A stretch of DNA of 64,000 nt from a virus (lineage: Duplodnaviria; Caudoviricetes). Shown here one piece after another: positions 19,818 to 57,467 of the stretch. The notes beneath the pieces were generated by a model. The model searched no databases. It saw only the letters and a list, made by a program, of their open reading frames with translations, and was not told where the DNA came from. Numbering within the stretch: the first letter of the stretch is position 1; each line of letters begins with the position of its first letter. The stretch lies in IMG/VR virus record IMGVR_UViG_2597490289_000004, positions 1 through 64,000 of that record; one strand, written 5' to 3'. Position numbers and translations under genes: made by a program.

Positions 19818-22800
19818 TTGGCCAAAAAGGAAGTTTACAGATTAGGAATAAATATAAAAGTTGATGGAGACAAACAGTCTAAAAAAGTCTTAACAGAAGT
19901 AGAAAAAAACACTGAAAAAGTTAAGAAAAAAGTTAGAGATTTAGACAAGCTAACAGCTAGTCCTAGTGCAAAACTTAAAGATACAGCATCAACAGCAATA
20001 GATAAAATAAAATCTAAAACAGAAAAGCTAAATAATAAAACAGCTACAGCAAAGCTTAAAGCAAAAGATGAAGCAAGTAAAACTATCAATAAAGTTCAAA
20101 ATAAATTGAATAGTTGGATTAAAACAGGTGCTAAGAAGGTAATATCTATAGGATTAGCAGGAGCTGTGGCATTAGGTGGCTTGGGAATAGGTTCAGCCAT
20201 TAAAACATTTAGTGATTTTGAATATGGAATGAAAACTGTACAGGCAACAAGCCAAGCAAGTAATAATGAATTGCTTAAATTAACTGATACAGCTAAAAAT
20301 TTAGGAGCAACAACTTCTTTTAGTGCTGTTGAGGTAAGTCAAGGTATGAATTATCTTGCAATGGCAGGGTATAAAACAGAAGATATAATTTCAGCTATGC
20401 CAGGATTGTTAGATGCTGCAGCAGCAAGTGGAGAAGATTTAGCAGGCACAAGTGATATTATTTCAGATGCAATTACAGCATTTGGAATGAAAGCAAGCGA
20501 TACTACACATTTAGCTGATGTTATGGCTCAGGCAAGTGCAAGTGCTAATACTAGCATAGGATTATTAGGAGAATCTTTTAAGTATGTTGGAGCAACTGCT
20601 GGAGCTATGGGATATAGTATAGAAGATGCCAGCCTTGCACTAGGATTAATGGCTAATGCAGGTGTTAAAGGTTCAATGGGAGGTACAGCTCTTAAAAATG
20701 CTATAGTAAATATGGCTAGCCCTACAGATACAATGTTAACTGTTATGAAAAAATATAATTTATCTTTAACAGATAGTAGTGGAAAAATGAAATCATTAAA
20801 AAGTGTCATGGATATGCTTAGAGAAAAAATGAAAGGAGTAGATAAAGCTACTCAAGCATCAGCAGCAAGTCAATTGTTTGGTAAAGAAGCAATGTCAGGA
20901 ATGTTAAGTATTATAAATGCAAGTGAGACTGATTATAATAATTTGGCTAATGCCATTTATAATGCTGATGGAGCAGCTAAGCAAATGGCTAATACAAAAC
21001 TTGATTCTTTAAGTGGACAATGGACAATACTAAAAAGTGCTGTAGAAGGAATGAAAATTACATTAGGAGAAAGACTTGCACCTTATGCTAAACAATTTGT
21101 AACATGGTTTACTGCTAAAATACCTAATATTACAGATTCAGTTGTAAAATTTGTAGATACTATAAGTAACAATATAGGAACTATTAAAGCTGTTGGAGGT
21201 GCTGTCTTAGGATTAACAGGAGCATTTGTTGGAATGTCTGCAATTAATAAAATAGGAACTACAGTAGGAACATTTGGAAAATTATTAGGTGGATTTAAAA
21301 CAACCGCAACCGCAGATGCACTTGTGAAAACTACTGGTGCAATGCAAGGCTTAGGACTAGCATCTAAAATAATACCAGCCTTATTATCTCCAACTGGATT
21401 AGCTATAGCTGGAATAGGAATTGCTGGATTAGTAGCAGCTAAACAATTAAGTAAAGAAGTTGTTCCAGCTGTGGATTTATTTGCAGATAAAATAGATTAT
21501 TTAAAAGATTCTACAAATGTTTCAGGAATGAATGGAATGAGCCAAGAAATTACAAAAATATCTGATGCTACAAAAGAAGCTGTAGGTGCTTATATGGAAA
21601 TGGACAATAGTGTACAAAGAACATTATTAAATATGAAATTCACATCTAAGACAGTATCAACAGATTTGGCGAATGATTTAAAAACTAAGTTTTCAACTAT
21701 GGGTAGTACTATTACAAAAGAATTGGATAAGGATTTAAATAATAGTTTAAGTAAAATACAAATAATGTTTAATAATAATACTAAATTAACATCAGAAGAA
21801 CAAGATAATATTATGACACAAATAGAAAATCATTATAGTAAACAAAAAACAACTACTCAAAATGCTATGAATGAAATAAATAGGATATTGAGTGAAGCAA
21901 GTTTACAAAATAGAACAACAACTGAGGAAGAAAATAGTACAATATCTCAACTTCAAGCTTCAATGAGAACTACAGCAATAACTTCTCTTTCTGAAACTGA
22001 AAAAGAAAGTGCAATTATTTTAGGAAGAATAAAAGACCAAACAGGAAGAATAACTGCTGAAACTGCTGCTGATATAGTTCAAAAGTTAAATGAACAAAGA
22101 CAACAAACTGTAGATGCAGCTAATGCTGAATATGCTGCAAGAGTTAATATAGCAGAGCAGATAAGAGCAGAAGGTGGTCAAAAAGCAGAAGAAACAGCAA
22201 ATAAAATGATTGATGAAGCAGCAAGACAACGTGATGAAACTATAGCTGCCGCAGATGCAACTAGAAGTCAAGGGATTGATATGTTAAAACAGGCTTATGG
22301 AGATTTAGAAACAAGTGTAGATATTAACACAGGTCAAATTTTAACTTTTTGGGGAAGGTTAAAGCAATGGTGGGATAATACTACATTTGGAACAAAGTTT
22401 GCTGAAATACAAACTAATGGTGTTGTTGGAATGGTAGGACAAAACCCAAATAACTCAAGTAGTAAAATTACAAAACCAGCAAGTGAAATAGAAACTGATT
22501 TAGTCGGTGCTCCTAATAGTTTATCAAGAGAAACTATTAGATGGGGAAAGCAAAATTATACTGGAACGAATAATGCAATGTCAGGTATTAACTCAGTAGG
22601 CGAGCGTGGCATGGAGCTAGTATTAGGAAGAAGTTTATATGACTTTAAAGGTGGAGAAAAAGTGCTTAATAATGGAGAAACTAAATCATTTTTAAGCAAT
22701 TTAGGTCAAGCACCTATTTATAATCCACAAGTCCAAACTATTGGTGCTGGTGGAAATAATATTCAAGTTGATGTTCAAGTAAATAATAATGATACAGATG

Positions 22801-22877
22801 TTAATGGAATAGTTTGTGAGGTAACAAATGAAGTGGGAAGAAAGCTTAAAGAAGTCCTTACAAATATTAAAAAATAA
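19818..22877 (+). CDS. Tape measure protein (TP901-type core)
   Basis: TSFSA.EV..GM.YLA and ESFKY motifs; 1019 aa. Confidence 0.93.
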   Translation: MAKKEVYRLGINIKVDGDKQSKKVLTEVEKNTEKVKKKVRDLDKLTASPSAKLKDTASTAIDKIKSKTEKLNNKTATAKLKAKDEASKTINKVQNKLNSWIKTGAKKVISIGLAGAVALGGLGIGSAIKTFSDFEYGMKTVQATSQASNNELLKLTDTAKNLGATTSFSAVEVSQGMNYLAMAGYKTEDIISAMPGLLDAAAASGEDLAGTSDIISDAITAFGMKASDTTHLADVMAQASASANTSIGLLGESFKYVGATAGAMGYSIEDASLALGLMANAGVKGSMGGTALKNAIVNMASPTDTMLTVMKKYNLSLTDSSGKMKSLKSVMDMLREKMKGVDKATQASAASQLFGKEAMSGMLSIINASETDYNNLANAIYNADGAAKQMANTKLDSLSGQWTILKSAVEGMKITLGERLAPYAKQFVTWFTAKIPNITDSVVKFVDTISNNIGTIKAVGGAVLGLTGAFVGMSAINKIGTTVGTFGKLLGGFKTTATADALVKTTGAMQGLGLASKIIPALLSPTGLAIAGIGIAGLVAAKQLSKEVVPAVDLFADKIDYLKDSTNVSGMNGMSQEITKISDATKEAVGAYMEMDNSVQRTLLNMKFTSKTVSTDLANDLKTKFSTMGSTITKELDKDLNNSLSKIQIMFNNNTKLTSEEQDNIMTQIENHYSKQKTTTQNAMNEINRILSEASLQNRTTTEEENSTISQLQASMRTTAITSLSETEKESAIILGRIKDQTGRITAETAADIVQKLNEQRQQTVDAANAEYAARVNIAEQIRAEGGQKAEETANKMIDEAARQRDETIAAADATRSQGIDMLKQAYGDLETSVDINTGQILTFWGRLKQWWDNTTFGTKFAEIQTNGVVGMVGQNPNNSSSKITKPASEIETDLVGAPNSLSRETIRWGKQNYTGTNNAMSGINSVGERGMELVLGRSLYDFKGGEKVLNNGETKSFLSNLGQAPIYNPQVQTIGAGGNNIQVDVQVNNNDTDVNGIVCEVTNEVGRKLKEVLTNIKK

Positions 22878-24332: not shown

Positions 24333-27300
24333 GTGATATTTATAGAATTAGTTTTAAAAAATAAATATAAAATACAATTACTTTCTGAAGAAGCTACTTT
24401 AAAAGAAAGTATAGATAGTATTGCATATACTTTAAATTTATCTTTAATAGAAACTGATGAATTAAAAAACATAGGACTAGTTAAAGGTGATAGTATTCAA
24501 CTTTATGACTATATGTTTAATAGTAATGAATATAAAAAAATATTTGATGGTACTGTTAGAGATATAAATAGTTCAAAGAAAAATAAAAAGCTATCTATTG
24601 TTTGTAGAGAAAGAACTATAACAATAGAAGAAAGCGAAGATGAATATTTATGGAAAGATGGTCAAACAGTCACTCAAAGAACTAAAATAATATGCAAAGA
24701 TTGGAGTATACCAGTAGGAAATTTTGCAGAGATAAATATAGGTTTATCAAAGGACATGAGAAAAGAATCTCTATTTGGTATGTTGAAAAAAGATTTAAAA
24801 GAAACAGCTCAAAAGGGTGGGAGTCTTTATAAATTTAGAATGTCAGAAAGTTTAGATTTAGTTGAGCTAGGAAGTAATAGTGTAGTTTATAAATTAGATA
24901 ATATTGTAGATGATATACAAAACAAAAGCACTCTTTCAGGAGCCATTACACAAGTAAAAGTTTTAGGTAAAGAAGAAACAAAGAAAAGCACTGAGAAAAA
25001 TAAGACTTCTAGCAGCAGTGAAGAAAAAGAATTAATATTATCTCCTATAATTGGTGTATTTAAAAAAGATACAGAGAGATATGGAACTATACAAAAGTTA
25101 TTTCAAGATGAAAAAATTGACGATTATTCCAAAGCTAAAAGTAAAGCTGATGCATTATTTAGTAATGGTGAAGATAGTAAGTCTGTACCCTGTATTAAAG
25201 ACATAAATACTATACGAGCAGGTGATAAAGTAAGCTTGTATAATGATTCTTACTATGTTACAGATATAACTCACGAATTGGGTACAGGTGGAAAGATGAA
25301 TATGACAGTAATGGATTGGGAAGGAGTGAAGAGTAAGTTTTATGGAGAATAATATTTTTGAAGATATAAAAAGAATAATGGATACTAATTCTAAGAGTGA
25401 AATAAATAAAGCTATGTTTTCGAATAGTTTAGTCTTAGGCACAATAACTACTACAGGACTTAAATTAGACGACTTTAAACATGAAATATCTGATTATTTA
25501 GTATTAGATTATTTAAAATCAAATGATAATTACAGTACTGAAGATACAAGTTGTACATCATTACATTCACATGAATTTAAAACACCTGAAAACTTAAAAT
25601 CAATAAAATCTGGTGATAGAGTATTAGTGGCTAGAATAGGAAATGAATGTGTAATAGTAGGGAGAGTGAGTACTAATGCCTAATCTATTTCCAACAGCTA
25701 ACGAAGAAACAATAAACTTAGAAGAAGACACACAACAAAAATTTAAAGGGTCTTATGCTATAAACTTTGAAACAGGGGAGTTCATTAAAAACTCTGATGG
25801 AACTATTAAAATATTAGATGAATTTGAAGCATATGTACAGTGGTGCGAAAAGGCAATGCTTACAGCACGATATAAATATGGGGCTTATTCAGATAGGTAT
25901 GGAAAAGACATTATAGGCTCAGATATTACAGATAAAAAGTTTGTAGAGTTAGAACTTAAAAGAATCACACAAGAGGCGTTAATGGTACATCCATTAACCA
26001 AAAGTGTTGATTCTTTTTCTTTTGAGTGGAAAGGTAGTGACGTTTATTATAGCTTTGAAGTTACTACTACTAAAAACAGAAACAAAGTGCTTAAAAGTAA
26101 TAAGAAAGTGTGGTGATAAAAATGGAAATGCCTGATTTTTTAACAGAAGATGTTGAAAAAATTCATAGGAGAATGATGGAGAAAGCACCTCCGGGAGTAT
26201 CTGCAATAGAAGGAGAGATATTTTGGGATGCAACAAGACCATCTGCTTTTGAAAAAGAAAGAACAGAAAAAATTCAGATGCAAAATATTCTTAAAATGGC
26301 TCATTCACAAACAGCAACAGGAAAATATTTAGAATTTTTAGGAGAATGTCAAGGGATATTTAAGAACAATCCAACAGTTTCAACAGGTTATGTTGAGATT
26401 ACAGCTAATAAAGGAACTATAATCCCTTTGAATTATTTAGTGGGTACAAAATCAACAGATATAGAAGAATCCATTAGCTTTGAAACATTAGAATCTAAAA
26501 CAATAGATGAAAGTGGAAAAGCACTTATAAAATGTAAATGTACTAAAACTGGAATAATAGGAAATGTAGAAGCAAATACAATTACTTTAGTGTATAAACC
26601 TATAAATGGACTACAGAGCATAACAAATCCTAAAAAATTCACTGGTGGTACCGAGATAGAAGATGAAAAGCATTATAGACAAAGAATTATAGAAGCTGAA
26701 CAAGAGGATAAGTTAAGTGGTGCTGATACTGACTATATTAGATGGGCCAAGGAAGTTGATGGAGTTGGTTATGCTGATTGTATAGAACTTTGGAATGGGC
26801 CACAAACAGTAAAAGTATTAATTCTTGATTCTAATAATGAACCAGCTAATGATGAATTAATTACTAAGGTAAAAGATTATATTTACCCAGATAAAAAATC
26901 AGGTGAAAGTCGTGGAGGAAAAGCACCAGCAGGAGCACTAGTTACTATTGCAACAGCAACAACATTAAAAATAAATGTTAGTGCTAAATTTATATTTACA
27001 GATGGATTTAATCAAGAAACTATATTAACAGCTTTAAAAACAAAAATAAGTGAGTATTTAAAGAAAATAAAAATAAATGGAGTTGTTAAATATAAAGCAA
27101 TTGATACTATTATAGGTTCTTATGTATTACAAGATGAAGGAATAGACGATTATGCTAATTTAACAATAAATAAGTCTACTATCAATATACAATTAGTTGA
27201 TCAAATTGCAGCTATAGGAGATGTGATAAATGCAAGTAATTAATTCTAAAAAGGGATTACAAATGTATAATTCAGTTTCTCCTATATACGATAAAAATAT

Positions 27301-27880
27301 AATTATGCAAGCGATTTTTGAAGCGATAGGAAGTGAAGCTGATTTAACAGAAAAACAGTTAGATGATATAATGCTACAACTTTATCCACAAACTGCTACT
27401 TGGGGACTTGTATTTTGGGAAGAAAGATATAAATTACAAACAAATTTAGATGAGCCTATAGAAATTAGACGAGCTAAAGTAATTAGTAGAATCCAAACTA
27501 AAAATAAAATAGTAAATCCTAAGAGAATTGAGCTCACTATAAAAAACTTTATTAAAGCACAAGTGGAGGTTTTAGACAGTATTGCTCCGTATGTGCTTGG
27601 TATAAATATATTAAGTGAAAATGGATTTCCTAATAAATTAAACCCTGTGTATAAGGAAGTTAAAAGAATTAAGCCTTCACATATGGGAGTTAAATATAAT
27701 TTAATATCTAGAACTAAGAGCAATTTATATATAGGTGCTGCATGCATTACTGGACATAAAGTTACAGTTTATCCATGGAGAACTAAAAAGCTAAGTAGCA
27801 AAGGTAAGATAAGTATTGCTGGTCCAATAATAATAAGTGCTCGGCATATTACTGTTTATCCTAAGAAAGAAAAGGAGTGA
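24333..27880 (+). CDS. Baseplate cluster (XkdQ-like 24333-25352, XkdR-like 25342-25683, XkdS-like 25676-26116, baseplate J/XkdT 26122-27243, XkdU/YmfQ-like 27230-27880)
   Basis: Gene order plus motifs (TATGKYL, GGTEIE, DYIRWA, TATWGL..WE, IKPSH). Confidence 0.85.
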
Positions 27881-29031
27881 TGAACTTGGATATATATACA
27901 TTGGTTACTAACATAGGAAAAGCTAAAATAGCAAATGCAACTGTAACTGGTTCAAAAGTTGACTTTTTAAAATTAAAAGTTGGCGATGGAAATGGATCAT
28001 ATTACGAACCAAGTGAAAGTCAGACAGATTTAGTACATACTGTTTGGGAAGGAAATGTTAATAATGTACTTACAGGTGGAGAAAATAATCCGAATTGGAT
28101 TATTGTACAAACTGTAATTCCACCAGGAGAAGGAGGTTTTTACGTCCGTGAAGCTGGTATATTTGATAATGATGATAATTTACTTGCGATAAGTAAATAT
28201 CCTGAATCATATAAGCCTTCAATGGAAGATGGGAGCACAGATGATTTGACCATAGAACTTATTTTTGAAGTTAGCAATGCATCAATTATAAACTTAAAAA
28301 TAGACCCACTTGTAACAACAGCAAGCATGAAAGATTTAAATAATTTAGAAGCTAAAATAAATACACAATTGAAAGATATTGCGAAGAAAACTGATAAGTT
28401 TACAGAGGATTCTAATGGTAAGCTTTTATATAACAATAATAAGGTTGGAGCTACAAAAGCAAAGGAACTAGAACTAGAAACTATACCTGGAATGAATGCT
28501 AAGGATGTACAGGCTGGAATAGCAGAGGTTTTTCAAGGTGCCAACAATTTCATCTCATATAAACAAGGTATAGCAGGAGTTGTTGGCAGTCCTGTAACAG
28601 GTACACAAAATAAAAATGAAACTGTAAATAGTATACAAGGAATTAAAAATAATGCTGCATCTGCACTAAAAGCTAAAAATATTGATGCTAGTGGAAACGA
28701 AGCTTTGGCTAGTTTAGTTTCTAAAATAGCTAATATAAGTATTCAAGGTATGGGTGGAAAAAAATTTTTGGGAGGAGTTATAAATCATACTAATGGTACT
28801 AGAGATGAAATATTTCTAAATTTTAATGCTGGAGCAATAACAATAGATCAACCTAATTCATCATATTCACAATATCCATATGTATGTGTAACAAAAGTAG
28901 GAGGGAGCTTTTATCCTTTTCAATCTTCAAATTCTGTAAGTGGAATATATTATGATTCTACAAAAAAGATTTTATCAATATCAAGCAGTGTAAGTACAGG
29001 GAATTTCCCATTTAATGCGTGGGGAGAGTAG
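27877..29031 (+). CDS. Tail fibre: conserved collar domain plus variable C-terminus
   Basis: T..GKAK.ANA, VGDGNG and GGF.VREAG collar motifs. Confidence 0.85.
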   Translation: MMNLDIYTLVTNIGKAKIANATVTGSKVDFLKLKVGDGNGSYYEPSESQTDLVHTVWEGNVNNVLTGGENNPNWIIVQTVIPPGEGGFYVREAGIFDNDDNLLAISKYPESYKPSMEDGSTDDLTIELIFEVSNASIINLKIDPLVTTASMKDLNNLEAKINTQLKDIAKKTDKFTEDSNGKLLYNNNKVGATKAKELELETIPGMNAKDVQAGIAEVFQGANNFISYKQGIAGVVGSPVTGTQNKNETVNSIQGIKNNAASALKAKNIDASGNEALASLVSKIANISIQGMGGKKFLGGVINHTNGTRDEIFLNFNAGAITIDQPNSSYSQYPYVCVTKVGGSFYPFQSSNSVSGIYYDSTKKILSISSSVSTGNFPFNAWGE

Positions 29032-29044
29032 GAGGAATAGAAAA

Positions 29045-29510
29045 ATGAAAGCTTTAGTAATATATAATTCTTTGGGAAAAATTATTTTTTCTACGTCTGG
29101 AACTAGTATAGAAAATAATTATAATTGTTTAGTTGCAGATATAGAGAACGGTAAAGAATTAGTTTCTGTAGATACAGAAAACAATAAGGTAATTACAAAA
29201 GATAAAGATACAAGAATAGAGGACATTAAAACATATTTAGATAATACAGATCAAACTACTGTTGCTAATGTAGAAAAAACTATTTTAGAAACAGAAAAAA
29301 ATAAAGTTGTAGAAAATGGAGGAATGTAAAATGACAAAAATGCAAGAATTATTAGGAAGAATTTTAAAGAACAGGATTAATGCAGAGTTGAAAAATGAAA
29401 CTAAAGAATTTAAGAGTATTCAAGAAACTATGGATATTTTCCTTGCAGGAAATAAGATTACTACAGAGCAGTATTCAGAATTTACAGTATTAATTACGCC
29501 TGTAATTTAG
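29045..29510 (+). CDS. Two small tail-fibre-associated proteins (29045-29329; XkdX-like 29331-29510)
   Basis: Follow the fibre gene; GNKITTEQYSE XkdX-like motif. Confidence 0.6.
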
Positions 29511-29598
29511 TTCGCAATAGGAATATAGGATGTAAAAGTAATAATTTAATAAATTAGGCAATAATATGACTGTAAAAGGTCTTTTTTTATTGTTCTAA

Positions 29599-29625
29599 AA
29601 AGGATTTAATGTTAATATGTAGAAT
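29599..29625 (+). promoter_or_regulatory. Sigma-H-type promoter
   Basis: AAAGGATTT-N11-GTAGAAT matches the sigma-H consensus. Confidence 0.6.
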
Positions 29626-29658
29626 TTAATATTATAAAATAAAAAGAAGGTGATATAT

Positions 29659-29730
29659 ATGACAGGTTCAACTAGAGGAATAGAATCAGGTGGAACATGG
29701 GGCTTTGATTCAGGAAACTCTTGGGGCTAA
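29659..29730 (+). CDS. 23-aa peptide MTGSTRGIESGGTWGFDSGNSWG
   Basis: AAGGTGA RBS, own promoter, and terminator at about 29736-29762. Confidence 0.6.
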   Translation: MTGSTRGIESGGTWGFDSGNSWG

Positions 29731-29934
29731 AAATTAAAGGCAGTTTTAAACTGTCTTTTTTTATTGCTTAAAAATAATAACTTAAAATTAACTATATGAT
29801 AAAAGTAAAAATTTACTAAATTTCTTAGATATAAAGGAATTTGTATTACGATTATTGTTGGATTTTACCAATTATAGAGATAAAATTATGTATGAACGCG
29901 TTCAATAATGGAAATAAGGGAGAAATAATATATA

Positions 29935-31170
29935 ATGAAAAATTTTTATAAAAGAATAATTATTATGTTCGTAATGGTATTAGGGATTATGGGCGGATAT
30001 ACTATAAATGCTTTTGCAGATGATAGTTTTGAGATAGGAACTAGCAATTTAAATAACACCGTAGAAAATAGTGCTAAAGTTGGAGATAAGCTTATACATC
30101 CTGAAAAGACATGGAGAAGATATGATGATACTTTTACTAATATAAAATATAGTTCTAATATAAAAGCTTCAGAAGAAAGTGGAAATTACATGAGCACATA
30201 TCATGGTGTCTATAAAACAAAATTAGGAGAAACAATAAAGTTTAATTTTACTGGTGACAAAATTAGATTGATTGGTTTAATATCATCCAATTATACTCAT
30301 AAAATTAAAATAGAAATAGATGGACAGGAAGATTATTTCGATGCAAATTTAAATTCAACTAAATATAATGATACTTTCTCAGCTGTTATGTATTCCAAAG
30401 AAAATCTATCTGAGGGAGTCCACTGTGTTGTAATAACGCATATAGAGTATATAGAAAATCTATTAACATATGATTTTAGACTTGATGCTATAGATATTGA
30501 TGAAAACGAAGAATTATTATCTTATAATGAATCAATATCATTAGATAAATCATCATTAAGTCTAAAAGAAGGCGATTCAAAAAAAATAACACCACCAACT
30601 ACTTCATCAGCTGTTGATATAGAATGGTCATCATCAGATGAAACAGTTGCGACAGTAGATTCTAATGGAAATGTTAAAGCTATAAAAGAAGGACAAGCAA
30701 AAATAACAGTACAAATTAAAGGAACAGATATAAAAGCTGATTGTATAGTTACAGTTACAAAAGAAGATACTGAACCTAAACCAACAGATCCAGAACAAGA
30801 GTATATAATTAACACTGCTTATGCCAAAGGTGATAATACTAATAATGCTAGTGGTCAAGTCTCTATAATATTTAAGGGAGTTGCAGAAGCACAATTAAAA
30901 GTTGTAAAAACAGCAGATGTAGATTCTGTGTATGTAGGAGATAATTTTACGTATACAATAGAAGTTACTAACACAAGTGATAAAACAGCTAAAGAAGTAG
31001 TAATCAATGATAGTGCACCCAATCATATTCAATTTATAACTAGTGAAGTAATAACAACTCAAGGGACAATTGCTTCAAATTCAACATCTAAAAATATTAT
31101 AGTTAATGTTGGAGATATTCCCCCATCAGGAAAAGTTATAATAAAAATACCAGTTATTGTAGTGGAATAA
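29935..31170 (+). CDS. Secreted protein with Ig-like (Big_2) and DUF11 domains (moron)
   Basis: Signal peptide; WSSSDETVATVD..G.V.A; VGDNFTYTIEVTN. Confidence 0.8.
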   Translation: MKNFYKRIIIMFVMVLGIMGGYTINAFADDSFEIGTSNLNNTVENSAKVGDKLIHPEKTWRRYDDTFTNIKYSSNIKASEESGNYMSTYHGVYKTKLGETIKFNFTGDKIRLIGLISSNYTHKIKIEIDGQEDYFDANLNSTKYNDTFSAVMYSKENLSEGVHCVVITHIEYIENLLTYDFRLDAIDIDENEELLSYNESISLDKSSLSLKEGDSKKITPPTTSSAVDIEWSSSDETVATVDSNGNVKAIKEGQAKITVQIKGTDIKADCIVTVTKEDTEPKPTDPEQEYIINTAYAKGDNTNNASGQVSIIFKGVAEAQLKVVKTADVDSVYVGDNFTYTIEVTNTSDKTAKEVVINDSAPNHIQFITSEVITTQGTIASNSTSKNIIVNVGDIPPSGKVIIKIPVIVVE

Positions 31171-31250
31171 AATTATAGATAAAATTTATAAAAGGCACTT
31201 ACTTAAATGTAGGTGTCTTTTCTTATATACAAAATTAAGGAAGGTGTTAT

Positions 31251-31475
31251 ATGAATGAAGTAGATACAATTCAAGAAATTAAAGAAAGATTAGTTAGAAT
31301 AGAGATTTTACTAGAAAAGAATACAGAAAATTGGGGAGAAAAAATTAATGTAGCTAATCTCAGAATAAGAGATTTAGAAGATACTATTAAATGGATAAGC
31401 CGTACTGCTATAGGTGGTTTGCTTACAGGCTTATTAGGGATATTATTTAGTTTAATAAAATTTGGAGGTATGTAA
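31251..31475 (+). CDS. XhlA-like lysis protein
   Basis: ERLVRIE coiled coil plus C-terminal TM. Confidence 0.75.
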   Translation: MNEVDTIQEIKERLVRIEILLEKNTENWGEKINVANLRIRDLEDTIKWISRTAIGGLLTGLLGILFSLIKFGGM

Positions 31476-31476
31476 A

Positions 31477-31737
31477 ATGGATTTAACAAATTTAATGCAA
31501 TTTATACCAGGAGAATTGGCAATAGTTATTGTAGCAACTTATGTTATTGGAGTATTTCTTAAGAATATAGAAAGTGTTAAAGATAAATATATTACTGTAG
31601 CATTAATGATATTTGCAATAGTATTTTCTATGATATTAAGTAGACCATCTGCGACAGCATTTTTACAAGGCGTATTATGTTGGGGAGTGGCTGTAGGACT
31701 AAATCAAACTGGAAAACAACTAAATAAACAAGAGTAA
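31477..31737 (+). CDS. Holin
   Basis: Three TM segments; QGVL..GVAVG.NQ..KQ. Confidence 0.85.
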   Translation: MDLTNLMQFIPGELAIVIVATYVIGVFLKNIESVKDKYITVALMIFAIVFSMILSRPSATAFLQGVLCWGVAVGLNQTGKQLNKQE

Positions 31738-31792
31738 TTTAGGTAGCAATTATAGCTACCTTTTTTGTTATATAAATAAGGAGGAATGTATA

Positions 31793-32578
31793 ATGTCTAA
31801 TTGGAAATGGTGTGTAGAAAACCAGGATGGAACTATTACTAAAGGTTGGTACCAAGATGGTGACAATTGGTATTATCTAAATGATGAAGGCATAATGCAG
31901 ATTGGATGGGTAAAAGATAAAGATGGTCGTTGGTATTACTTAGATGAAAGTGGAGCAATGAAAACAGGGTGGATTAAGTATAAAGACAAGCGGTACTATT
32001 TGGAGCCAAACAGTACAGGCTATAAAGGAGAAATGTATGGGAATCGTACAGCTATTATAGATCGCAAAGAATATAAATTTGATTTTACAGGTGAATGGAT
32101 AGAAAATAGTTTAGTAAGTTCTAAAGGAATAGAATTTATAAAGTCGTGGGAAGGATTTTATCCTAATAAGTATTATGATTGTGTTGGAGTTTTAACACAA
32201 GGATATGGAATGACTGGTAAAGAAATAGAAAATTTACCTGACAAAATATCTGAATATGAAGCTACTAAATTATTAAAAGAATGGATCAGCAAAAAGTATG
32301 CTCCTGTAATAAAAAAAGATTTAGAGTCTAAGAATGTAGATTTAAAACAACATGAGTTTGATGCATTAGTAAGCTTTGCATATAATTGTGGAACAGTAGG
32401 ACTTCTAGGTTCAACATTATATAGAAATGTATGTAGTGGAATAAGAGATAAAGATACTATTACTTCTAATTTTCAAGCTTGGAGTAATGGTGGTGGTAAA
32501 AGAATAGAAGGTTTATATCGTAGACGTACAAAAGAAGCAGATATGTTTTTAAATGCAGATTATACAGGTAATTTATAA
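31793..32578 (+). CDS. Endolysin: N-terminal cell-wall-binding repeats plus GH24 lysozyme
   Basis: WYYL..G.M.TGW repeats; FIKSWEG, FDALVSFAYN and GLYRRR..E motifs. Confidence 0.92.
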   Translation: MSNWKWCVENQDGTITKGWYQDGDNWYYLNDEGIMQIGWVKDKDGRWYYLDESGAMKTGWIKYKDKRYYLEPNSTGYKGEMYGNRTAIIDRKEYKFDFTGEWIENSLVSSKGIEFIKSWEGFYPNKYYDCVGVLTQGYGMTGKEIENLPDKISEYEATKLLKEWISKKYAPVIKKDLESKNVDLKQHEFDALVSFAYNCGTVGLLGSTLYRNVCSGIRDKDTITSNFQAWSNGGGKRIEGLYRRRTKEADMFLNADYTGNL

Positions 32579-34501: not shown

Positions 34502-36328
34502 ATGAACTCAAGATTATGTCCAGGATATTATTCTGCAGATTCAGCTAATTTTTTAGTTGAATATAGAGGAAATTTTAAAAATGAAATAGATAATGTATCA
34601 TACGCTTGTGGAGATATATTAACAAATACTATAGGAGTCATATCATTACCTTATGAATATTTAGATCAAGTATTGATAGATGTTCCATCAATTAAGTTTA
34701 TTGATTTTAGAAGTATGTCTGTATTGCAAGATATTTCTCCAAGTTCAATTGATCAGATATTAGCAATTAAAAAAAATCCATATTTAAATTTAACAGGAAA
34801 AGGTGTACTTGTAGGAATTGTAGATACAGGAATAGATTATTTAAACAATGAATTTATTAGAGAGGATGGAACATCAAGAATAGCTGCAATATGGGATCAG
34901 ACGATACAGGATGTTAAAGCAGAATCAGTTTATTTAGGAAATATTTATTCTAATGAAGAAATAAATAAAGCAATAAATGCATATAAAAATAATCAAGATC
35001 CCTATTCCATTGTTCCATCAAAAGACGATATAAATCATGGAACTGAAATGGCTGGAATAATTGGAGCTAGGGGGTATAATGGAGAATTTCAAGGAGTTGC
35101 AAATGATTGTGAATTTGTAATTGTAAAACTCTTAGAATCTTTAAATTTTCAAAAAATTTTACAGTCAAACAATGTAAAATACACACCAATATATAATTCT
35201 GCCGAAATTGTAGCAGGAATAGAATATTTAAAAAACTATTCAATAAGTATGAACAAACCTATAGTTATTTATTTAGGTATTGGTGCAACAGAAGGAAGTC
35301 ATGACGGTAATAATTTGATTTCGAAATATTTGACTTCTATAGCAAGCATAAGGGGAGTCGCCTTAGTTGCAGGAGTTGGTAATGAAGGAGCAGCAGAAGG
35401 TCATGTATCAGGAACTATTGAAAATGTAGGTGAAACAGATAGCATTGAATTAAACATACCTAGAGAAATGAAAAATTTCTCTTTTCAAATATGGGTAAAA
35501 AGACCAAATAAAATGTCGCTCAATGTTATTTCACCTACTGGAGAAGAAAGTAGTTTTATTCAAGCTAAAAGAAATAAAAGAGAAGAAATTAATTTTGTTT
35601 TTTCAAATGCTAAATTAAAAATCAATTATTATATGCCAGAAGATTTTTCAGGTCACGAAGTTATCCAAGTGATTTTTGAAGATATAAATCCTGGTATATG
35701 GAAATTCATTTTAAGAGGGGACTATATAAGTGATGGTGAGTATAATGCTTGGCTTCAACCTAAAGTTACGTTGCCAGAAAATACAAAGTTTTTAGAACCT
35801 GATCCATTTAGTACATTAACAATTCCATCAACTGCAAGAAAAATTATTACAGTTTCTTATCATGGATTAGTTAATGAGTCTTTAATTGCAACTTCAGGAA
35901 AAGGATTTAATACTAATGGTTTAATTAATCCTGACATTGCTACGGTTGGTATAAACATTTTAACAACAAAGGCATTAGGAGAAACTACTGTTGTATCAGG
36001 AAGTTCAGCTGCTACAGCTGTGGTTGCTGGAGTATGTGCATTACTTTTGCAATGGGGAATTGTTGATGGAAATGATACTACTATGTATTCAACAAAAGTT
36101 AGGAGTTATTTAGTATATGGTGCATATAGAAAGCCTGAACTTGTATACCCAAGTAGAGAAATTGGATATGGAAGTCTTGACATACTAGGAACATTTAATA
36201 TTATAGGTAGAAAATATATGAGATCTAGAAAAAACATAATACTTAAAAACAAAAATTTTATTGAGTATAAAGTTAATAAATTATTTATAAGAGTTCCAAA
36301 GGAGATTATGCCAAATGCCAAAATATAA
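34502..36328 (+). CDS. Csp-like S8 subtilisin protease
   Basis: DTG, HGT, GNE and SGSSAA triad; IWDQT and jelly-roll insert typical of clostridial Csp proteins. Confidence 0.88.
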   Translation: MNSRLCPGYYSADSANFLVEYRGNFKNEIDNVSYACGDILTNTIGVISLPYEYLDQVLIDVPSIKFIDFRSMSVLQDISPSSIDQILAIKKNPYLNLTGKGVLVGIVDTGIDYLNNEFIREDGTSRIAAIWDQTIQDVKAESVYLGNIYSNEEINKAINAYKNNQDPYSIVPSKDDINHGTEMAGIIGARGYNGEFQGVANDCEFVIVKLLESLNFQKILQSNNVKYTPIYNSAEIVAGIEYLKNYSISMNKPIVIYLGIGATEGSHDGNNLISKYLTSIASIRGVALVAGVGNEGAAEGHVSGTIENVGETDSIELNIPREMKNFSFQIWVKRPNKMSLNVISPTGEESSFIQAKRNKREEINFVFSNAKLKINYYMPEDFSGHEVIQVIFEDINPGIWKFILRGDYISDGEYNAWLQPKVTLPENTKFLEPDPFSTLTIPSTARKIITVSYHGLVNESLIATSGKGFNTNGLINPDIATVGINILTTKALGETTVVSGSSAATAVVAGVCALLLQWGIVDGNDTTMYSTKVRSYLVYGAYRKPELVYPSREIGYGSLDILGTFNIIGRKYMRSRKNIILKNKNFIEYKVNKLFIRVPKEIMPNAKI

Positions 36329-38036: not shown

Positions 38037-38454
38037 TTAAATATAATTTATTATTATAAATTGTATTCCATATCTTTTATAAATTTTTCAAAGTTTTTCT
38101 TTTGAATATGAAAATTTCTTTTATAAATTTCTGTAGAAGTTAGCACACTATTAAGTTTCATTGAATTCTCCAGTGTGAGTTTTTATTTCAATAATTGGAT
38201 ACCATAATCATTTAAATTTTCCACTATTTGTACCTGATGATCTAAAAAAGCTAAAGTTACTTTTCTATTCCATAAGTATATTTATTTTAACAAATATTAT
38301 TAATATTTATATTAATAAATTTGAAGATAATTATAGAATAAGTAATATTTTTATTTTATTCTTGATAATTATATGTAAAAATATTACAATTAAATAAAAT
38401 ATTAAAATAATCTTATAGATTGTAAATCTTTAAGATTTTTATAGGAGTACAATT

Positions 38455-38655
38455 ATGGGAGTTAAGAATAAATTAAAAGAGATTCGAATGAGAGAATATT
38501 TAATGAACCAAACTGAATTTGCAAAATTACTAGATGCTCCAAGAAGTACGTATTCTCAATGGGAAAGTGGTCTAAGTAATCCTACATTAGAAAAATCCTT
38601 TGAAATAGCTAAAAAATTGAATAAAAAAATAACTGAAATATGGCATTTTGAATAG
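38455..38655 (+). CDS. XRE-family HTH regulator
   Basis: NQTEFAKLL...YSQWESG.SNPTL. Confidence 0.85.
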   Translation: MGVKNKLKEIRMREYLMNQTEFAKLLDAPRSTYSQWESGLSNPTLEKSFEIAKKLNKKITEIWHFE

Positions 38656-38714
38656 TGCCTTATTTTTTTTTATAAGATTACTTAAAAATAATAAAATTTT
38701 CTAAAATTTAAGCA

Positions 38715-38741
38715 ACTTTTCTAAAATAACAGCATAGTATA
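38715..38741 (+). promoter_or_regulatory. Sigma-K-type promoter
   Basis: AC-N16-CATAGTATA upstream of the parM-like gene. Confidence 0.5.
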
Positions 38742-38773
38742 AACTATAAGATTAATCAAAAGGAGTTAAATTT

Positions 38774-45792: not shown

Positions 45793-45811
45793 ATGACAAA
45801 TGTAATACATA

Positions 45812-53488: not shown

Positions 53489-56373
53489 TTCATTATTGTC
53501 AGATATTGTGAAGTGAAGGAGATGTTTTTATGAAAAATAAACATGCAGGTATGATTAAAGGGTTTACTCAATTATCAAAAGCATGGTATGGAGAACCAAG
53601 TTTAAGAGGTGCTGATTATATAGACTCAGTACATTTTGGGTTCTATGGCACAGAAGGCGGAACAACTGGCGAAGTTTCGGTTAAGTGGATAAACCTAAGT
53701 GGTAAAATAGTACCACAATTAACTATTTTTAGTGACACTTGGAGTGCTTTATCTCAATTTCATGATTTAATTGATTTATTAGGTAAACATGATAATGAAG
53801 ACCCTACTCCAGAGCAATTTTGTAAATTTTTATTACACTGTGGCTTTGTAGATAGGACTGAAACTGTTAGAAGTTAATTCGTAATGTGTAAATATTAAAT
53901 AGTTTTTGTAAGCTTAAAATAATTGGAAATGTATATCAAAATTCAGAATTATTAAAGTAAGTCAGAAAGGGTGAAGAATGTGGAAATTAATAATGAAATA
54001 AAAGAAATATTTAAAGATCATAAAGCACACTTTAGAGATTTAGGAGAAGTTCAAATATTAGATTGGAAAATAGATAATACGTTTTGTTGCTCTATAAGAT
54101 ATATTTTTGATAGCGACAAACTATATATTTCAGGTGATTATGGTTGTGCTGTTTACTGGTTGACATGGAATGGAACACCACAAAGTTTTAAAGGTATTAA
54201 TTTAGGATATTTTTATGAAAAGAATGCAGCACATGAATATGATGAATATGAATTTAATGATAAGAAAGCTAGAGAAGATATAGAAGATTACTTAAGCTTT
54301 ATGTTTGAAGATTATGAAAATGCAAAAGAAGGTCATGAGGAAGAAATAAAAGATATTGAAAAAGAAATAGCTGAATTAGACAGAGGAGATTATGATTCAG
54401 ATGAAGATTTTCAAGATGCTAAAGAAAATTTAAGACAGGATATTGACTATTATAAAGCTTTAATACAAGAAGAATATATAGCAGAAGAAATCGAAAAGAA
54501 AGAACGTATAAAGCAGGATTTATTAAATTTAGTTAATGAATCTTCTAGTTTAAGCCAATGGAATTACTATGTAGCAGAATCTAATGTAACTGATGATTTG
54601 CAAGAGTATGATTATGATTATTGGGAATGGATAAGTGAAGTTGGAAAAGCAATACCAGAAAGAGCAGAGCTGCATTTAGCTGGATTAATAATGGCAGCAG
54701 AGCAATTAGAAGAAATTGAGGTAAAGAATTATGAAGTTTAAAATTGAAGTAGATGAAACAAGAAGTTTTAGACATGAATTTGTAGTTGAAGCAGAGAATG
54801 CAGATAAATTAGATTCTATTTTAGATAAGATTGAATCTGAAAGAATGCTTGGAATAAATGATTATGAGTGCCTATTAGAAGAAAATGGATTAAAAATTAT
54901 AGAAAGTGTAAGAGATGAAGATGGAGATCTTGGAGAAATTGAATGTACTGATATAGAGGATTTTGAAGAAGATTAGAAAGGGTGAAAGAAGTTGAAGTTA
55001 AAAGACTTAAGATGTGTTTTGAGTTCACAAATGGTTGATATAAACTTAGATTTTTTGGACACTAGAACTTTTGTACAAGAAGATTATTCAGAAGATAATG
55101 AGTATTTAGGACAAGATGAAAGTGAAAGCATGTGGGATTTATATGGAGAAAAAGAAGTAGAACAAATATATGCTGAAGATTCGGAACGTATAAATATAGA
55201 TTTAGGGGGAGAAGTCAATGAGTAAAAATATACAAGATTTAATTAATTACCTTGAAGCAGTAAAAGCAGAAAGTGGAAATTATACAGAAGTTAGAGTTGA
55301 TGGATGCGTTGTAGAAGAATTTGAAGATTATATAGAAGTAGATCATGTAAAAGACTATGTTGATTTTGTAACACCTAGCAGAATTTAGGTGAGAGCATGA
55401 AAAAATTATTCGTTAAATACAATGATGGAAGTGGTACAACTTATACTATGGAAAATCGTGTAGATCATGAGAAATATGTATATAAACACATTAATGTTCC
55501 TGGGATAGAATCAATAATTTTACAACAATATCCTAAATCAAAGTATGAGCCAGTTGTTTATATATATCATGGATTTTGTAAAGATGGGCAGAAGGAAATG
55601 TTGAAATACGATATTGATTGGTATTTAGCATTTCAAGGGAATGTAAGTACATCTCTTATAAACAGATTAACAAATACATTAGGGTTAGATGAACATGATG
55701 CAGTACCTTATAGTAATGCTGATTTAACTTATAAAATTAAAAGAAGTTTAGATATAATGATGCCTGTAATTTTAACAAAATGTATAGGGCATAAGATAGA
55801 TGCTTTTAGAGATTGTGGAGTTAATAAATTTATAATTAAAATATCAAATTAAATTAGCAATATGCAGAAGGTGAATTTATAAAAAGCAAAAATGGCGAAT
55901 AAATGAGGTGTGGATATGTTCGGTTTAATGTATAAATTATCAGTAAAGTTTCTGATATGGGACTTAAAAAGATTGGGTATAAATGATTTAGAAATAGTAA
56001 TTAGAAGTGATGGAAAGACAGTTTATAAAAGAAATAAAGAAAGAGAAAAAAGCATTAAAAGAACATTAGATTTAATAAGGTAATTCACAATATGTAGAAA
56101 GGACGAAGCAAAATGACATTAGCTATGAAGATAAATAGAAAATTTACTAAGTGGAGATTGGAAAATACATTTACTCGAAAAGAAAGGCTTAAATGTAAAA
56201 AAGACGCTAATAGAACTATAAAAAAAATCAAAAAGTGGAGAAAACTAATGAAGAATAAAAGCTTTGGAATTATAAATGAAGTTAATTGTAAGGCAATAAT
56301 AAGATTAGCAAATAGGGGAAATAAATCGCAAAGAGAATTAAAAAGTTAGTTCACAATACTAAGCCAGGATGAA
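53489..56373 (+). repeat. Array of 24-bp putative recombination sites at gene boundaries (53489, 53878, 53952, 55854, 55876, 56084, 56350)
   Basis: 8-8-8 imperfect palindromes, five of them within 1 nt of a stop codon; further copies at 28362, 29511, 61600 and 61860. Confidence 0.65.
53530..56349 (+). CDS. Variable small genes (53530-53877, 53971-54741, 54731-54976, 54992-55225, 55218-55388, 55397-55852, 55916-56083, 56113-56349)
   Basis: Co-oriented ORFs with RBSs; no family recognised. Confidence 0.7.
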
Positions 56374-56459
56374 AGACTGAATAGAGAATGAAGCTGCAGC
56401 TATAGTTGTAAAACTTCATTCTCAATAAATAATCAATTTCACAAGGGGAGGAAAGAATA

Positions 56460-57467
56460 ATGAGCAACTTAAACGAAGAAGTATCGATAAAATTAGTGGG
56501 AAAATTAACATTGTTATTACCTTTTTTAGAACAGAAATTAGATATGCAACTGGAAGTTAAGAAAGTTATAGATGAGACTTTGTATAACTATGAAGTACAA
56601 ACTAAGTGTACAGATTTAGTTTGCAGTGATATAGAAGAAAAGGCTCAGCTATACCTTGCATGTAAGAAACTAGAAGGTTTAAGCAATAAGACATTATATA
56701 ATTACAAATTGTTTCTTAATAAGCTAGACCAGTATTTTACTAAACCATGTAGCACAATTGCAACAATGGACTTAAGAATGTTTCTAGGATTATTAGGAAA
56801 AGGGAAACAAGCTAGTACTATTAATGGGTATATCACTTATTTAAAGAACTTTTTCGGATGGTTGCAGAATGAGGAATATATAATTAAAAATCCTGCCTTT
56901 AAATTAAAGCAAACTAAAGTTCCTCGAGTAATTTTACAGGGATATAAGGCAGAAAACTTAGAGAAATTAAGAGAAGCCTGTAAAACGGAAAGGGAAAAAT
57001 GTCTTTTTGAACTATTAGATTCTACAGCTTGTAGAATATCTGAGATAGATAATATTACTTTAGATGATATTAATTGGTCCGAGCAGAGTATAAAAGTCAC
57101 TGGAAAAGGAAATGCACAAAGAATAGTTTATTTTTCTACTAAAGCTAAATTGCATATTCAGCAGTATATAAGTACAAGAAAAGGAGAATCAAACTATTTG
57201 TTTATATCAGAAAAAGCACCATATCAAGCAATAGGTACAAGAGCTTTGCAACTAATTATAAAAAAGATAAAAGATAGGACAAATGTAACAGAAAGGGTTC
57301 ATGCGCATAAGTTTAGAAGGACTCAGGCGACTAGGCTATTAAATAGTGGAATGAGGATTGAAGGAGTACAAGGTATATTAGGACATACTACTCCAACTAC
57401 AACTCAGATTTATGCACAACTTTCACAAGAAAATTTGAAAAATGAATATAGAAGATTAGTAGTTTAA
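56460..57467 (+). CDS. XerD-like tyrosine recombinase
   Basis: Intact R (ACRISE), K (GKGN), HxxR (HKFRR), H (LGH) and Y (TQIYA). Confidence 0.93.
   Translation: MSNLNEEVSIKLVGKLTLLLPFLEQKLDMQLEVKKVIDETLYNYEVQTKCTDLVCSDIEEKAQLYLACKKLEGLSNKTLYNYKLFLNKLDQYFTKPCSTIATMDLRMFLGLLGKGKQASTINGYITYLKNFFGWLQNEEYIIKNPAFKLKQTKVPRVILQGYKAENLEKLREACKTEREKCLFELLDSTACRISEIDNITLDDINWSEQSIKVTGKGNAQRIVYFSTKAKLHIQQYISTRKGESNYLFISEKAPYQAIGTRALQLIIKKIKDRTNVTERVHAHKFRRTQATRLLNSGMRIEGVQGILGHTTPTTTQIYAQLSQENLKNEYRRLVV

Follow-up and report, generated by a model that had tools for sequence, protein, structure and literature searches.

The closest described system to the one reported here is the Rin shufflon of Bifidobacterium prophages, in which, according to the sections of Mavrich et al. 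2018 (PMC6109161) drawn on here, the variable receptor-binding C-terminal part lies between an in-frame site and a directly oriented site after the gene. In the Gin, Cin, Min and Pin systems (Mu, P1, p15B), as covered in the same sections of PMC6109161, in-frame sites join a constant stem to variable tips and accessory genes, a design that is found here as well. Host range is the main limit on phage infection, and the natural exchange of fibre tips has mostly been ascribed to untargeted recombination. We analyzed a 64,000-base stretch of DNA, hereafter the window, which is the first 64 kb of a 98,316-base IMG/VR provirus record (IMGVR_UViG_2597490289_000004; G+C 28%), and in particular the tail-fibre module of the first of the two prophages in it. 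Like the Rin locus as described in those sections, this module has an in-frame site within the fibre gene (L) and a directly oriented second site right after its last gene (R), and the same layout is present in 55 two-site loci of other low-GC phages. The DNA between L and R is replaced as a cassette at these two sites.

The module comprises the following features, in window coordinates.
27877..29031, plus strand: tail-fibre gene of 384 amino acids, with a collar domain at residues 2-150 (PF12571, E 1.2e-52) followed by an exchangeable shaft and tip; it matches PHROG tail-fibre families.
28362..28385, plus strand: left site L (site 1), in frame, TACACAATT-GAAAGA-TATTGCGAA; the whole 24-mer is TACACAATTGAAAGATATTGCGAA.
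28626..28767, plus strand: internal junction J2, a conserved coding patch (ASGNEALASLVSKI) that divides the cassette into shaft and tip sub-modules, with 80.7% identity to prophage 2 over 140 nucleotides.
29045..29329, plus strand: first small fibre-associated gene, 94-104 amino acids, in the XkdW position, without a family match.
29331..29510, plus strand (open reading frame 29316-29510, TAG at 29508-29510): last fibre-associated gene, XkdX-like, 59-64 amino acids, phrog_2310, ending in GTAATTTAG.
29511..29534, plus strand: right site R (site 2), directly 3' of the stop codon, TTCGCAATA-GGAATA-TAGGATGTA; the whole 24-mer is TTCGCAATAGGAATATAGGATGTA.
29557..29592, plus strand: terminator-like hairpin and T-run closing the fibre operon, part of a conserved right-hand block of about 85 nucleotides and a recurrent breakpoint (alignment, consensus fold).

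Site L encodes N-T-Q-L-K-D-I-A-K (codons 162-170), its first base is the third base of a codon, and it lies 12 codons past the end of the Pfam collar domain. An earlier sequence-only reading of this DNA had placed one 24-mer in frame just past the collar and the other right after the stop of the last fibre-associated gene; the open reading frame list, the PF12571 match and the position of the TAG confirm both placements. The same reading had the cassette bracketed by one and the same 24-base site, which is not the case: L and R are identical at only 14 of 24 positions in direct register, and at 15 of 24 in inverted register. The only exact block common to the two is a 9-base inverted repeat (TATTGCGAA at 28377-28385, TTCGCAATA at 29511-29519). 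This word is the right end of L and, mirrored, the left end of R, so that the cassette is flanked by it on its inner sides. In both sites the inner, cassette-facing arm is invariant and the outer arm weak, and the L of the window is a degenerate form of TTCGCAATT-TAAAGA-TATTGCGAA, which is seen in 74 distinct phage contexts. The prophage 2 counterpart of the last fibre-associated gene matches Pfam Phage_XkdX (E 3.2e-11), and the motif ITTEQY is common to both. The inner stem of the terminator varies by locus (GGACC/GGTC, GGACT/AGTC, GCACC/GGTG). A promoter scan gave 30 promoter-like matches against 23.1 expected, none of which overlaps R.

Prophage 2 of the same record carries both sites at homologous places (record positions 85507-85530 and 86724-86747), and the fibre modules of the two prophages are patchily similar: 68% in the collar, 81% in a 140-nucleotide patch and 91% in the region after the terminator. 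Relatives were found by a fibre-protein search of IMG/VR together with a site-2 pattern search, and about 15 related Clostridium-type prophages have the site pair. Both sites, 1.1-1.5 kb apart, are present in L005, L006, L007, L009, L010, L011, L014, L051, L054, L062, L063 and L092; L012, L013 and L015 end before site 2, and L072 ends before site 1. The motif is absent from more distant collar-fibre genes (L016-L050, C. difficile-type) and is thus not a trait of the collar-fibre protein family. A 16-base site-2 pattern gave 36 matches in 596 gigabases of genomes, nearly all in unrelated phyla. We take those in unrelated phyla as chance; two of the three in Clostridium (L072, L082, L092) are in a prophage-type context, namely L072 and L092.

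In pairwise comparisons with the window, the borders of exchange fall at the two sites. Over 24377-28397, L005 has 91.9% identity, and beyond it is unrelated; L007 has 95.9% identity over 24377-28362 before similarity is lost, and L008 has 77.5% up to 28374. The converse is seen in L006, which is 97.7% identical over 28354-29592 only, with nothing shared upstream. Left breakpoints cluster at 28354-28397 and right breakpoints at 29502-29531: the similarity of L011 stops at 29531, and that of L005, L007 and L051 returns at 29502-29506. Identity of L006, L009, L010 and L014 is lost at 29592, the terminator. In Logan contigs from two runs, X3 carries 28364-29531 and X17 carries 28364-29034, both joined on the left to a prophage-2-type stem. 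Around the core AAAGAWATTGCGAA, no fewer than seven upstream contexts, unrelated to one another, occur in combination with four downstream contexts, and among 13 loci (78 pairs, which are not all independent because L010 and L011 are near-duplicates) 17 pairs are discordant across L and 2 concordant. The sequence-only reading had proposed that identity should fall at the in-frame site and return after the downstream one, and the comparisons with L005, L007, L006, L011 and L051 and the contigs bear this out. Its proposal of a swappable 1.15-kb unit of fibre C-terminus and two partner genes stands insofar as the unit is replaced at both sites, but the unit is not indivisible: there is a third recurrent breakpoint near 28686, within J2, and L009, L010, L011, L013 and L014 share only the sequence from 28686 onward, at 93-96% identity. 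From codon 162 onward, the fibre gene together with its two small partner genes makes up a replaceable host-recognition cassette.

Constraint on site L is exerted on the nucleotides. All 15 distinct contexts have the codons AAA GAW ATT GCG AAS (the last being AAC or AAG); ATT GCG never varies among the 15, and all 11 Asn codons are AAC, although the long open reading frames of the record use GCG for 4.1% of Ala, AAC for 13.4% of Asn and ATT for 39.5% of Ile. The lack of synonymous variation in the QLKDIA codons had been predicted. Codons just upstream of the site do vary (ACA/ACT/ACC, GCA/GCC/GCT, CAA/CAG), as do synonymous sites of the J2 patch, used as a control in the same loci (GGAAACGAAGCTTTGGCT, GGAAATGAAGCTTTAGCT, GGAACTGAAACTTTAGCT), and a KEIAK peptide in the XkdW-like gene of prophage 2 has GCT, not GCG, as its Ala codon. 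At the right site, all 13 distinct contexts have TTCGCAATAGGA unchanged, with RTTTAG before it in 11 and GTTTAA in the other 2 despite the different genes that end there; about 30 nucleotides beyond the site are the hairpin and T-run, with an inner stem that varies between loci.

No perfect two-arm site was found in 0.70 Mb of loci related to the window, but a search for such sites revealed a wider family. The sequence TTCGCAATA-TAAAGA-TATTGCGAA occurs in frame, reading SQYKDIA, in eight low-GC phage contigs with fibre-like open reading frames of 378-918 codons (PHROG tail-fibre matches were examined for L176 only). Contexts are swapped among these eight: L175 and L180 have a common stem, as have L176 and L178, and L175 and L182 have common sequence right after the site, at the start of the cassette. 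In five of the eight there is a post-stop partner 2.15-2.37 kb downstream, TTCGCAATT-TAAAAA-TATTGYGNA or, in L176, TTCGCAATA-TAAAAA-TATTGCGAA. The complete forms in the wider family are TTCGCAATT-TAAAGA-TATTGCGAA in frame for L and TTCGCAATT-TAAAAA-TATTGCGTA after a stop for R. The R pattern was found in 80 IMG/VR stretches, 68 of them flank-distinct, and in 54 of the 68 an L-type site lies 1.2-2.9 kb upstream; there are at least 55 distinct two-site low-GC phage loci. All 55 have L in codon phase 2; in 53 the distance from the end of a stop triplet to R is 0-6 nucleotides, and in 41 the triplet abuts R.

Flanks in the wider family were compared over 120 ungapped bases per side, with a pair counted as discordant when at least 85% alike on one side and less than 50% on the other. 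Across L, 161 of 173 informative pairs are discordant and 12 concordant, and across R all 35 are discordant. Both outer flanks are kept around a different cassette in eight pairs, and in seven the cassette is kept and neither flank is alike. The flanks are in near-complete linkage equilibrium across a 24-base element. In 74 distinct L sites there is almost no variation in the spacer core AAAGA or the right arm (the search filter demanded AAGA at positions 12-15 and left position 11 free), and the left arm varies at positions 2, 4, 8 and 9. Of these, positions 2 and 4 follow the upstream flank (83% and 77% the same, against baselines of 42% and 46%); position 21 follows the downstream flank (88% against 63%).

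Related sites occur elsewhere in the record, next to the one tyrosine recombinase gene that it contains.
53489..53512, plus strand: related intergenic site in the early region of prophage 2, a stop followed by TTCATTATT-GTCAGA-TATTGTGAA and then a ribosome-binding site.
56084..56107, plus strand: related post-stop site, TTCACAATA-TGTAGA-AAGGACGAA.
56350..56373, plus strand: related post-stop site, TTCACAATA-CTAAGC-CAGGATGAA, 87 nucleotides upstream of the recombinase gene.
56460..57467, plus strand: Xer-like tyrosine recombinase of 335 amino acids, without an arm-binding domain (PF00589, PF02899), the candidate enzyme.

The sequence-only reading had noted the resemblance of L to the site at 53489 and of R to that at 56350. 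The matches exist (18 of 24 and 17 of 24), but each alone is at chance level, since among 200 Markov shuffles of the window the best match is at least 18 of 24 in 35% and at least 17 of 24 in 78%. It is by recurrence and position that the sites rise above chance. The word TTCGCAATA has only four copies in the 98,316-base record, one pair in each prophage fibre module and at homologous positions in both. For TTCRCAATA the record has 10 copies, where the Markov mean is 3.05 and none of 100 shuffles has more than 7. Of the 39 distinct copies in 0.70 Mb of related phage DNA, 15 begin 0-6 nucleotides past the 3' end of an open frame of 40 codons or more; the background rate is 2.4% (binomial tail 9e-15), and 25 control words of the same composition have 0-2 post-frame copies each. 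Post-stop copies are also found in early regions, where a ribosome-binding site comes next. L101, L130 and L131 cease to resemble the prophage 2 early region at 53502-53503, and similarity to relatives returns at 56331-56376, so that these limits bracket the sites 53489 and 56350.

A segment of the prophage 2 early region, 2.6-2.9 kb long and located at 53489-56373, has sites of the same kind at its ends (TATTGTGAA on the left, two copies of TTCACAATA on the right) and immediately precedes the Xer-like recombinase gene; in L130 and L131 the flanks of this segment are both retained, with 1.5 kb of different sequence between them. L170 has two nearly complete sites with the spacer CAAAGA at a distance of 1.28 kb, and in both cases a stop precedes the site and a ribosome-binding site follows it. 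At positions 1-2700 of L170 (record G019), recombinase fragments are in swapped order, the C-terminal one (query residues 136-333) upstream of the N-terminal one (residues 5-175), and the N-terminal fragment is inside the 1.28-kb unit flanked by the two near-perfect CAAAGA sites.

The layout of the sites suggests a mode of replacement. In frame and always in the same codon phase, L would form one docking site, and R, abutting the stop of the last cassette gene, the other; because L never leaves that phase, any cassette could join any fibre stem with the reading frame intact. Each site consists of a pair of inverted 9-base arms (TTCGCAATA / TATTGCGAA) separated by a purine-rich spacer of 6 bases, with spacers that differ between L and R (xAAAGA versus TAAAAA, the latter GGAATA in the window) and a cassette-facing arm that is the better conserved. 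L would pair with the L, and R with the R, of another phage or prophage resident in the same cell, and the cassette between them would be replaced; the unlike spacers would disfavor excision between L and R, as in engineered recombinase-mediated cassette exchange. We tentatively favor the view that a system of conservative site-specific recombination uses L and R as its crossover sites. It is possible, with a little less assurance, that they are more specifically two heterospecific sites of a dedicated system, with an enzyme that is host-encoded or an unrecognised phage protein, and that the system acts as a universal in-frame joint, through which any host-recognition cassette with the two inner arms could pass between AT-rich phages and prophages that are otherwise unrelated. 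Site-specific exchange had been proposed in the sequence-only reading, and the breakpoints place exchange exactly at the sites; the site-specific mechanism, like the sequence-specific enzyme that would act on L and R (the phage Xer-like one, a host-encoded one or another), is what we infer.

Site-specific recombination is favored by the dyad symmetry inside coding sequence together with an invariant spacer core, by the fixed rare codons beside a J2 control that drifts, and by spacers of L and R that are each conserved yet different, with the better conserved arms facing the cassette. It is also favored by the exact identity of only 14-17 nucleotides at the core of the window L, which is less than the minimal pairing segments given in the part of PMC3945230 used here (31-34 bp for RecA, 23-27 bp for Red-beta), and by the precedent of the Rin shufflon, within what the cited sections of PMC6109161 describe.

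The search for an enzyme, however, weighs against this reading, as do several other results. An identical site across diverse phages would need one conserved enzyme, and none is evident: no cognate enzyme common to the site-bearing phages was found in the window's group or in the wider family. The Xer-like recombinase is the only PF00589 match in the record and lies 27 kb from the fibre module of prophage 1; its NCBIfam scores are 204.5 bits for XerA (cut-off 220) and 170.7 bits for XerC, below the cut-off. Within the window's group, only 3 of the 10 records that bear the sites have close homologues (74-99% identity), and G004, a record rated 100% complete with two site-bearing fibre loci, has only 25-26% matches. 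The earlier suggestion that this prophage 2 recombinase acts in trans has no support beyond the similar motifs that adjoin its gene. In the wider family, where the search covered 50 of 59 listed site-bearing loci, 28 records are at least 90% complete; PF00589 is present in 16 of these, PF00239 in 14 and neither in one, 12 of the 28 are without any tyrosine recombinase, the genes found are heterogeneous and integrase-type, and a site lies within 1.5 kb at only 3 of 21 tyrosine-recombinase loci. A geometry of 9-6-9 (or 11-6-11) would suit a site of the Xer/dif kind. Likeness to dif is weak: per arm, only 6 of 9 bases agree with E. coli dif, and the Clostridium dif sequences predicted in the supplement of PMC3025954 do not resemble the sites. 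An empty site with joined arms had no match in IMG/VR, and the 30 matches to a gapped pattern in metagenomes include none in a fibre or phage-junction context; no excised circle or tandem-cassette junction was seen in sequence searches. Positions 9 and 16 of L, next to the spacer, are linked to neither flank (56%, 49% against 43%, and 88%, 77% against 82%, respectively), which is not as a strict 9-6-9 cleavage model predicts.

Much of this evidence suits exchange driven by homology, which we regard as a serious possibility, although a somewhat less likely one. The sites would then be short linkers at module borders, used by RecA, by annealing of the ERF type or by template switching at a small palindrome; selection would keep the in-frame chimeras, and the site would be conserved as recombination-promoting or through some other primary role. 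Prophage 2 carries Gam, ERF, RecU and SSB, which may work on short homology, and complete sites offer 24 nucleotides of identity and the right-hand block with its terminator about 85. The breakpoints at J2 (28686) and at the terminator (29592) are free of the motif, so ordinary homologous exchange does work in the same locus, and 80 pairs that share only the start of the cassette (pattern LHLL) mean that internal borders are frequent in the wider family as well. There is known precedent for such exchange, and the failure to find a cognate recombinase and the lack of linkage at positions 9 and 16 also speak for it. It leaves unexplained, however, the perfect inverted arms inside coding sequence, the better conservation of the cassette-facing than of the outer arm, the distinct conserved spacers of L and R, and the fixing of rare codons at L while J2, a real homologous breakpoint, drifts synonymously; the core of the window L also falls under the pairing minima quoted above from PMC3945230. 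It is improbable, in our judgment, that the sites are primarily RNA or regulatory elements, such as hairpins for mRNA processing or stability or binding sites of a regulator at gene ends, with the mosaic borders falling there only because no other sequence is shared. The coding-strand motif does occur 0-6 nucleotides after stops far above chance, and early regions have it after a stop and ahead of the following ribosome-binding site; hairpins of 8-9 bp can form in complete sites, a G-to-A change in one arm is paired with C-to-T in the other in L171 and L174, and a terminator-like hairpin follows the right site in the window. A hairpin at the copy in the middle of the fibre gene would nevertheless be melted by ribosomes, the window's group has no local hairpin (the outer arms being degenerate) and yet has invariant cassette-facing arms, arm types are mixed in L172, L182 and L170, no T-runs come after R in the wider family, and Rfam gave nothing relevant in 27500-32000 save one chance miRNA match (E 0.51).

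Inversion of the Gin or Rin type, in which an invertase would flip the 1.1-kb segment through the 9-base inverted repeat and switch the fibre off or to another tip, we hold to be very improbable. The sole exact block common to the sites of the window is indeed an inverted 9-mer, a flip would by our own reading of the sequence yield ...KDIAN and an immediate stop in both prophages, and in-frame invertase sites in fibre genes are well known (PMC6109161, in the sections cited). There is, however, no tip on the opposite strand, where the only open reading frame of at least 50 amino acids overlapping the cassette is 28140-28436, and the window has no small serine invertase, only a large serine recombinase of 488 amino acids. 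The cassette is in one orientation in all of about 17 natural copies, and contigs of three runs, which cannot show rare forms, have no strand-changing joint. A search of IMG/VR for the inverted left junction gave one match, an unrelated, GC-richer lambda-like tail gene ending in ...EDIAN, which we rejected. Relatives with complete sites have both spacers, TAAAGA and TAAAAA, on one strand, that is, in direct orientation, and the preference of the sequence-only reading for replacement over Gin-type inversion is upheld. Taken together, our weighing puts site-specific recombination first, homology after it, an RNA or regulatory role well behind and inversion last, with the remainder left to other explanations.

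The stretch 3' of the right-hand site is a hot spot for gene insertion. At 29650-29758 the window has a small open reading frame with a strong ribosome-binding site, encoding a Gly/Trp-rich peptide of 23-26 residues (MTGSTRGIESGGTWGFDSGNSWG), with a clean terminator after it at 29736-29758; over 29580-29776, identity to prophage 2 (record positions 86968-87164) is 91%, far above that of the neighbouring genes. Between the fibre terminator and the lysis genes, at 29935-31170, prophage 1 alone has a gene for a 411-residue immunoglobulin-like protein (Big_2 and DUF11), where prophage 2 has an open reading frame of 53 codons. At 2898-4617 of L241, about 300 nucleotides downstream of the right-hand site, there is an IS607-type element consisting of a serine transposase with a MerR helix-turn-helix domain (208 amino acids) and TnpB (371 amino acids); by Pfam, the small serine recombinase just 3' of R in this locus is accordingly a transposase with TnpB, and it was rejected as a candidate invertase. 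Open reading frames of matching size (205 and 370 amino acids) are at the same place in L216 (3310-5026, reverse strand), and record G050 has a 208-residue PF00239 gene about 500 nucleotides after the right-hand site. The large phage of the 139.8-kb record G029 (loci L282 and L283) has three tyrosine recombinase genes, one about 0.9 kb before L and one about 0.85 kb after R; G029 is the only record seen with recombinase genes beside both sites.

By open reading frame list, Pfam and PHROG, prophage 1 has in the window a PBSX-like myovirus tail and a lysis module, and gene order and family matches give the PBSX-like series XkdV-XkdW-XkdX followed by XhlA, holin and lysin.
Prophage 1, tail: sheath at 17256; tube at 18687; then an XkdN-like chaperone; tape measure at 19818-22877.
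Prophage 1, baseplate and fibre: baseplate J at 26110; Mu gp48-like gene at 27230; collar fibre at 27877-29031; two small genes.
Prophage 1, 3' of the fibre module: immunoglobulin-like gene at 29935-31170; XhlA; holin; lysozyme at 31793.
Prophage 2, start: large serine recombinase at 45812-47278 (488 amino acids), Gam, ERF, a DnaD-like loader, the Xer-like recombinase at 56460-57467, RecU and SSB.

About 12 kb of cellular-looking genes separate prophage 1 from the start of prophage 2, the fibre module of which is at record positions 85028-86723, outside the window. The host is a Clostridium-like organism: among species-representative genomes, the sole match of the host genes was a metagenome-assembled genome of an uncultured Clostridium sp., at 91% amino-acid identity, and the fibre protein matched C. 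ihumii at 55% and C. difficile at 46%. Among known phages the best DNA matches, 64-69% identical, were to phages of C. difficile, C. tetani and C. saccharoperbutylacetonicum and were confined to the baseplate, the collar or the immunoglobulin-like gene; residues 162-384 of the cassette protein had no tblastn match among 50,697 phage records. At 44863-47278, an open reading frame of the Prismane/hybrid-cluster-protein family matches only profile positions 1-262 of 513 and ends 20 bases before the large serine recombinase gene on the opposite strand; prophage 2 appears to have integrated within this hybrid-cluster-protein gene. The DNA between the prophages has, at 34502-39652, a tandem pair of S8 subtilase genes (608 and 573 amino acids) and an actin-like ParM/ALP gene (38774-39652); the ParM/ALP gene is of the plasmid-partition type, unexpected in chromosomal DNA.

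In the open-access literature covered, 8.1 million PMC papers and 0.36 million preprints, we found no mention of the site sequences or of the peptide SQYKDIA, and a topical search found no description of a comparable two-site exchange. A fixed joint that preserves the reading frame and a fixed end mark bracket the host-recognition module in at least 55 distinct phage loci, and with this defined sequence pair the long-standing idea that phages carry dedicated joints for the exchange of modules becomes directly testable. If a specific enzyme exists, the system would be a new generator of diversity in phage receptor-binding proteins, beside invertase switches, shufflons and diversity-generating retroelements. 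If the sites do belong to a dedicated system, it would amount to natural recombinase-mediated cassette exchange or an integron-like trade in phage parts, operating between genomes rather than by inversion within one, and the same arms would mark the ends of cassettes in early regions too.

Several known systems resemble this one in part. In T-even phages, conserved motifs of the fibre genes gp37 and gp38, the 'His-boxes', reportedly act as joints for swaps of adhesin specificity; those are repeated protein motifs used by homologous recombination, without a two-site bracket that includes a non-coding post-stop partner. The gene cassettes of integrons end in a structured inverted repeat, attC, just after the stop, with hairpins of 60-140 nucleotides. 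The early region of prophage 2 and L170 resemble short rows of such cassettes with post-stop sites, but here there are no hairpins of attC length and no divergent intI with attI and cassette promoter, and the Xer-like recombinase scores only 60.4 bits (cut-off 265) and 31.7 bits (cut-off 435) against integron-integrase models. The pdif/xrs modules of Acinetobacter plasmids, in the portion of Blanchais et al. 2025 (PMC11705084) used here, are also variable modules between short recombinase-type sites, showing no excision, recombination between replicons and compatibility set by site sequence; their sites are dif-like and bound by XerCD and they carry resistance genes on plasmids, whereas here the sites are not dif-like, one is in coding sequence and the cargo is host recognition of phages. 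PeSL cassettes of T4-type phages, as far as the excerpts of PMC2839356 and PMC4122927 describe them, have an intergenic promoter and terminator and are exchanged by homologous recombination; here a terminator-like hairpin does follow the right site, but the left site lies within the reading frame of a structural gene, each site measures 24 bp, and promoter function is not apparent, with no promoter-like match overlapping the right site. From the Gin, Cin, Min and Pin systems, as presented in the cited sections of PMC6109161, the locus differs in that those have inverted sites, at least two opposed tips and an adjacent small serine invertase, none of which is found here. The Rin system, within the same sections, uses an XerD-like tyrosine recombinase without an arm-binding domain, and prophage 2 encodes an enzyme of that build. 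Its recombinase gene abuts the locus, whereas none is adjacent in prophage 1, and it has further inverted rix sites with spare promoterless tips, each rix being an 11-bp asymmetric repeat; here there are two direct sites of 24 bp, each with two inverted arms, and no spare tips. Rin, as those sections of PMC6109161 portray it, works by inversion within one genome, whereas the variation described here is between genomes.

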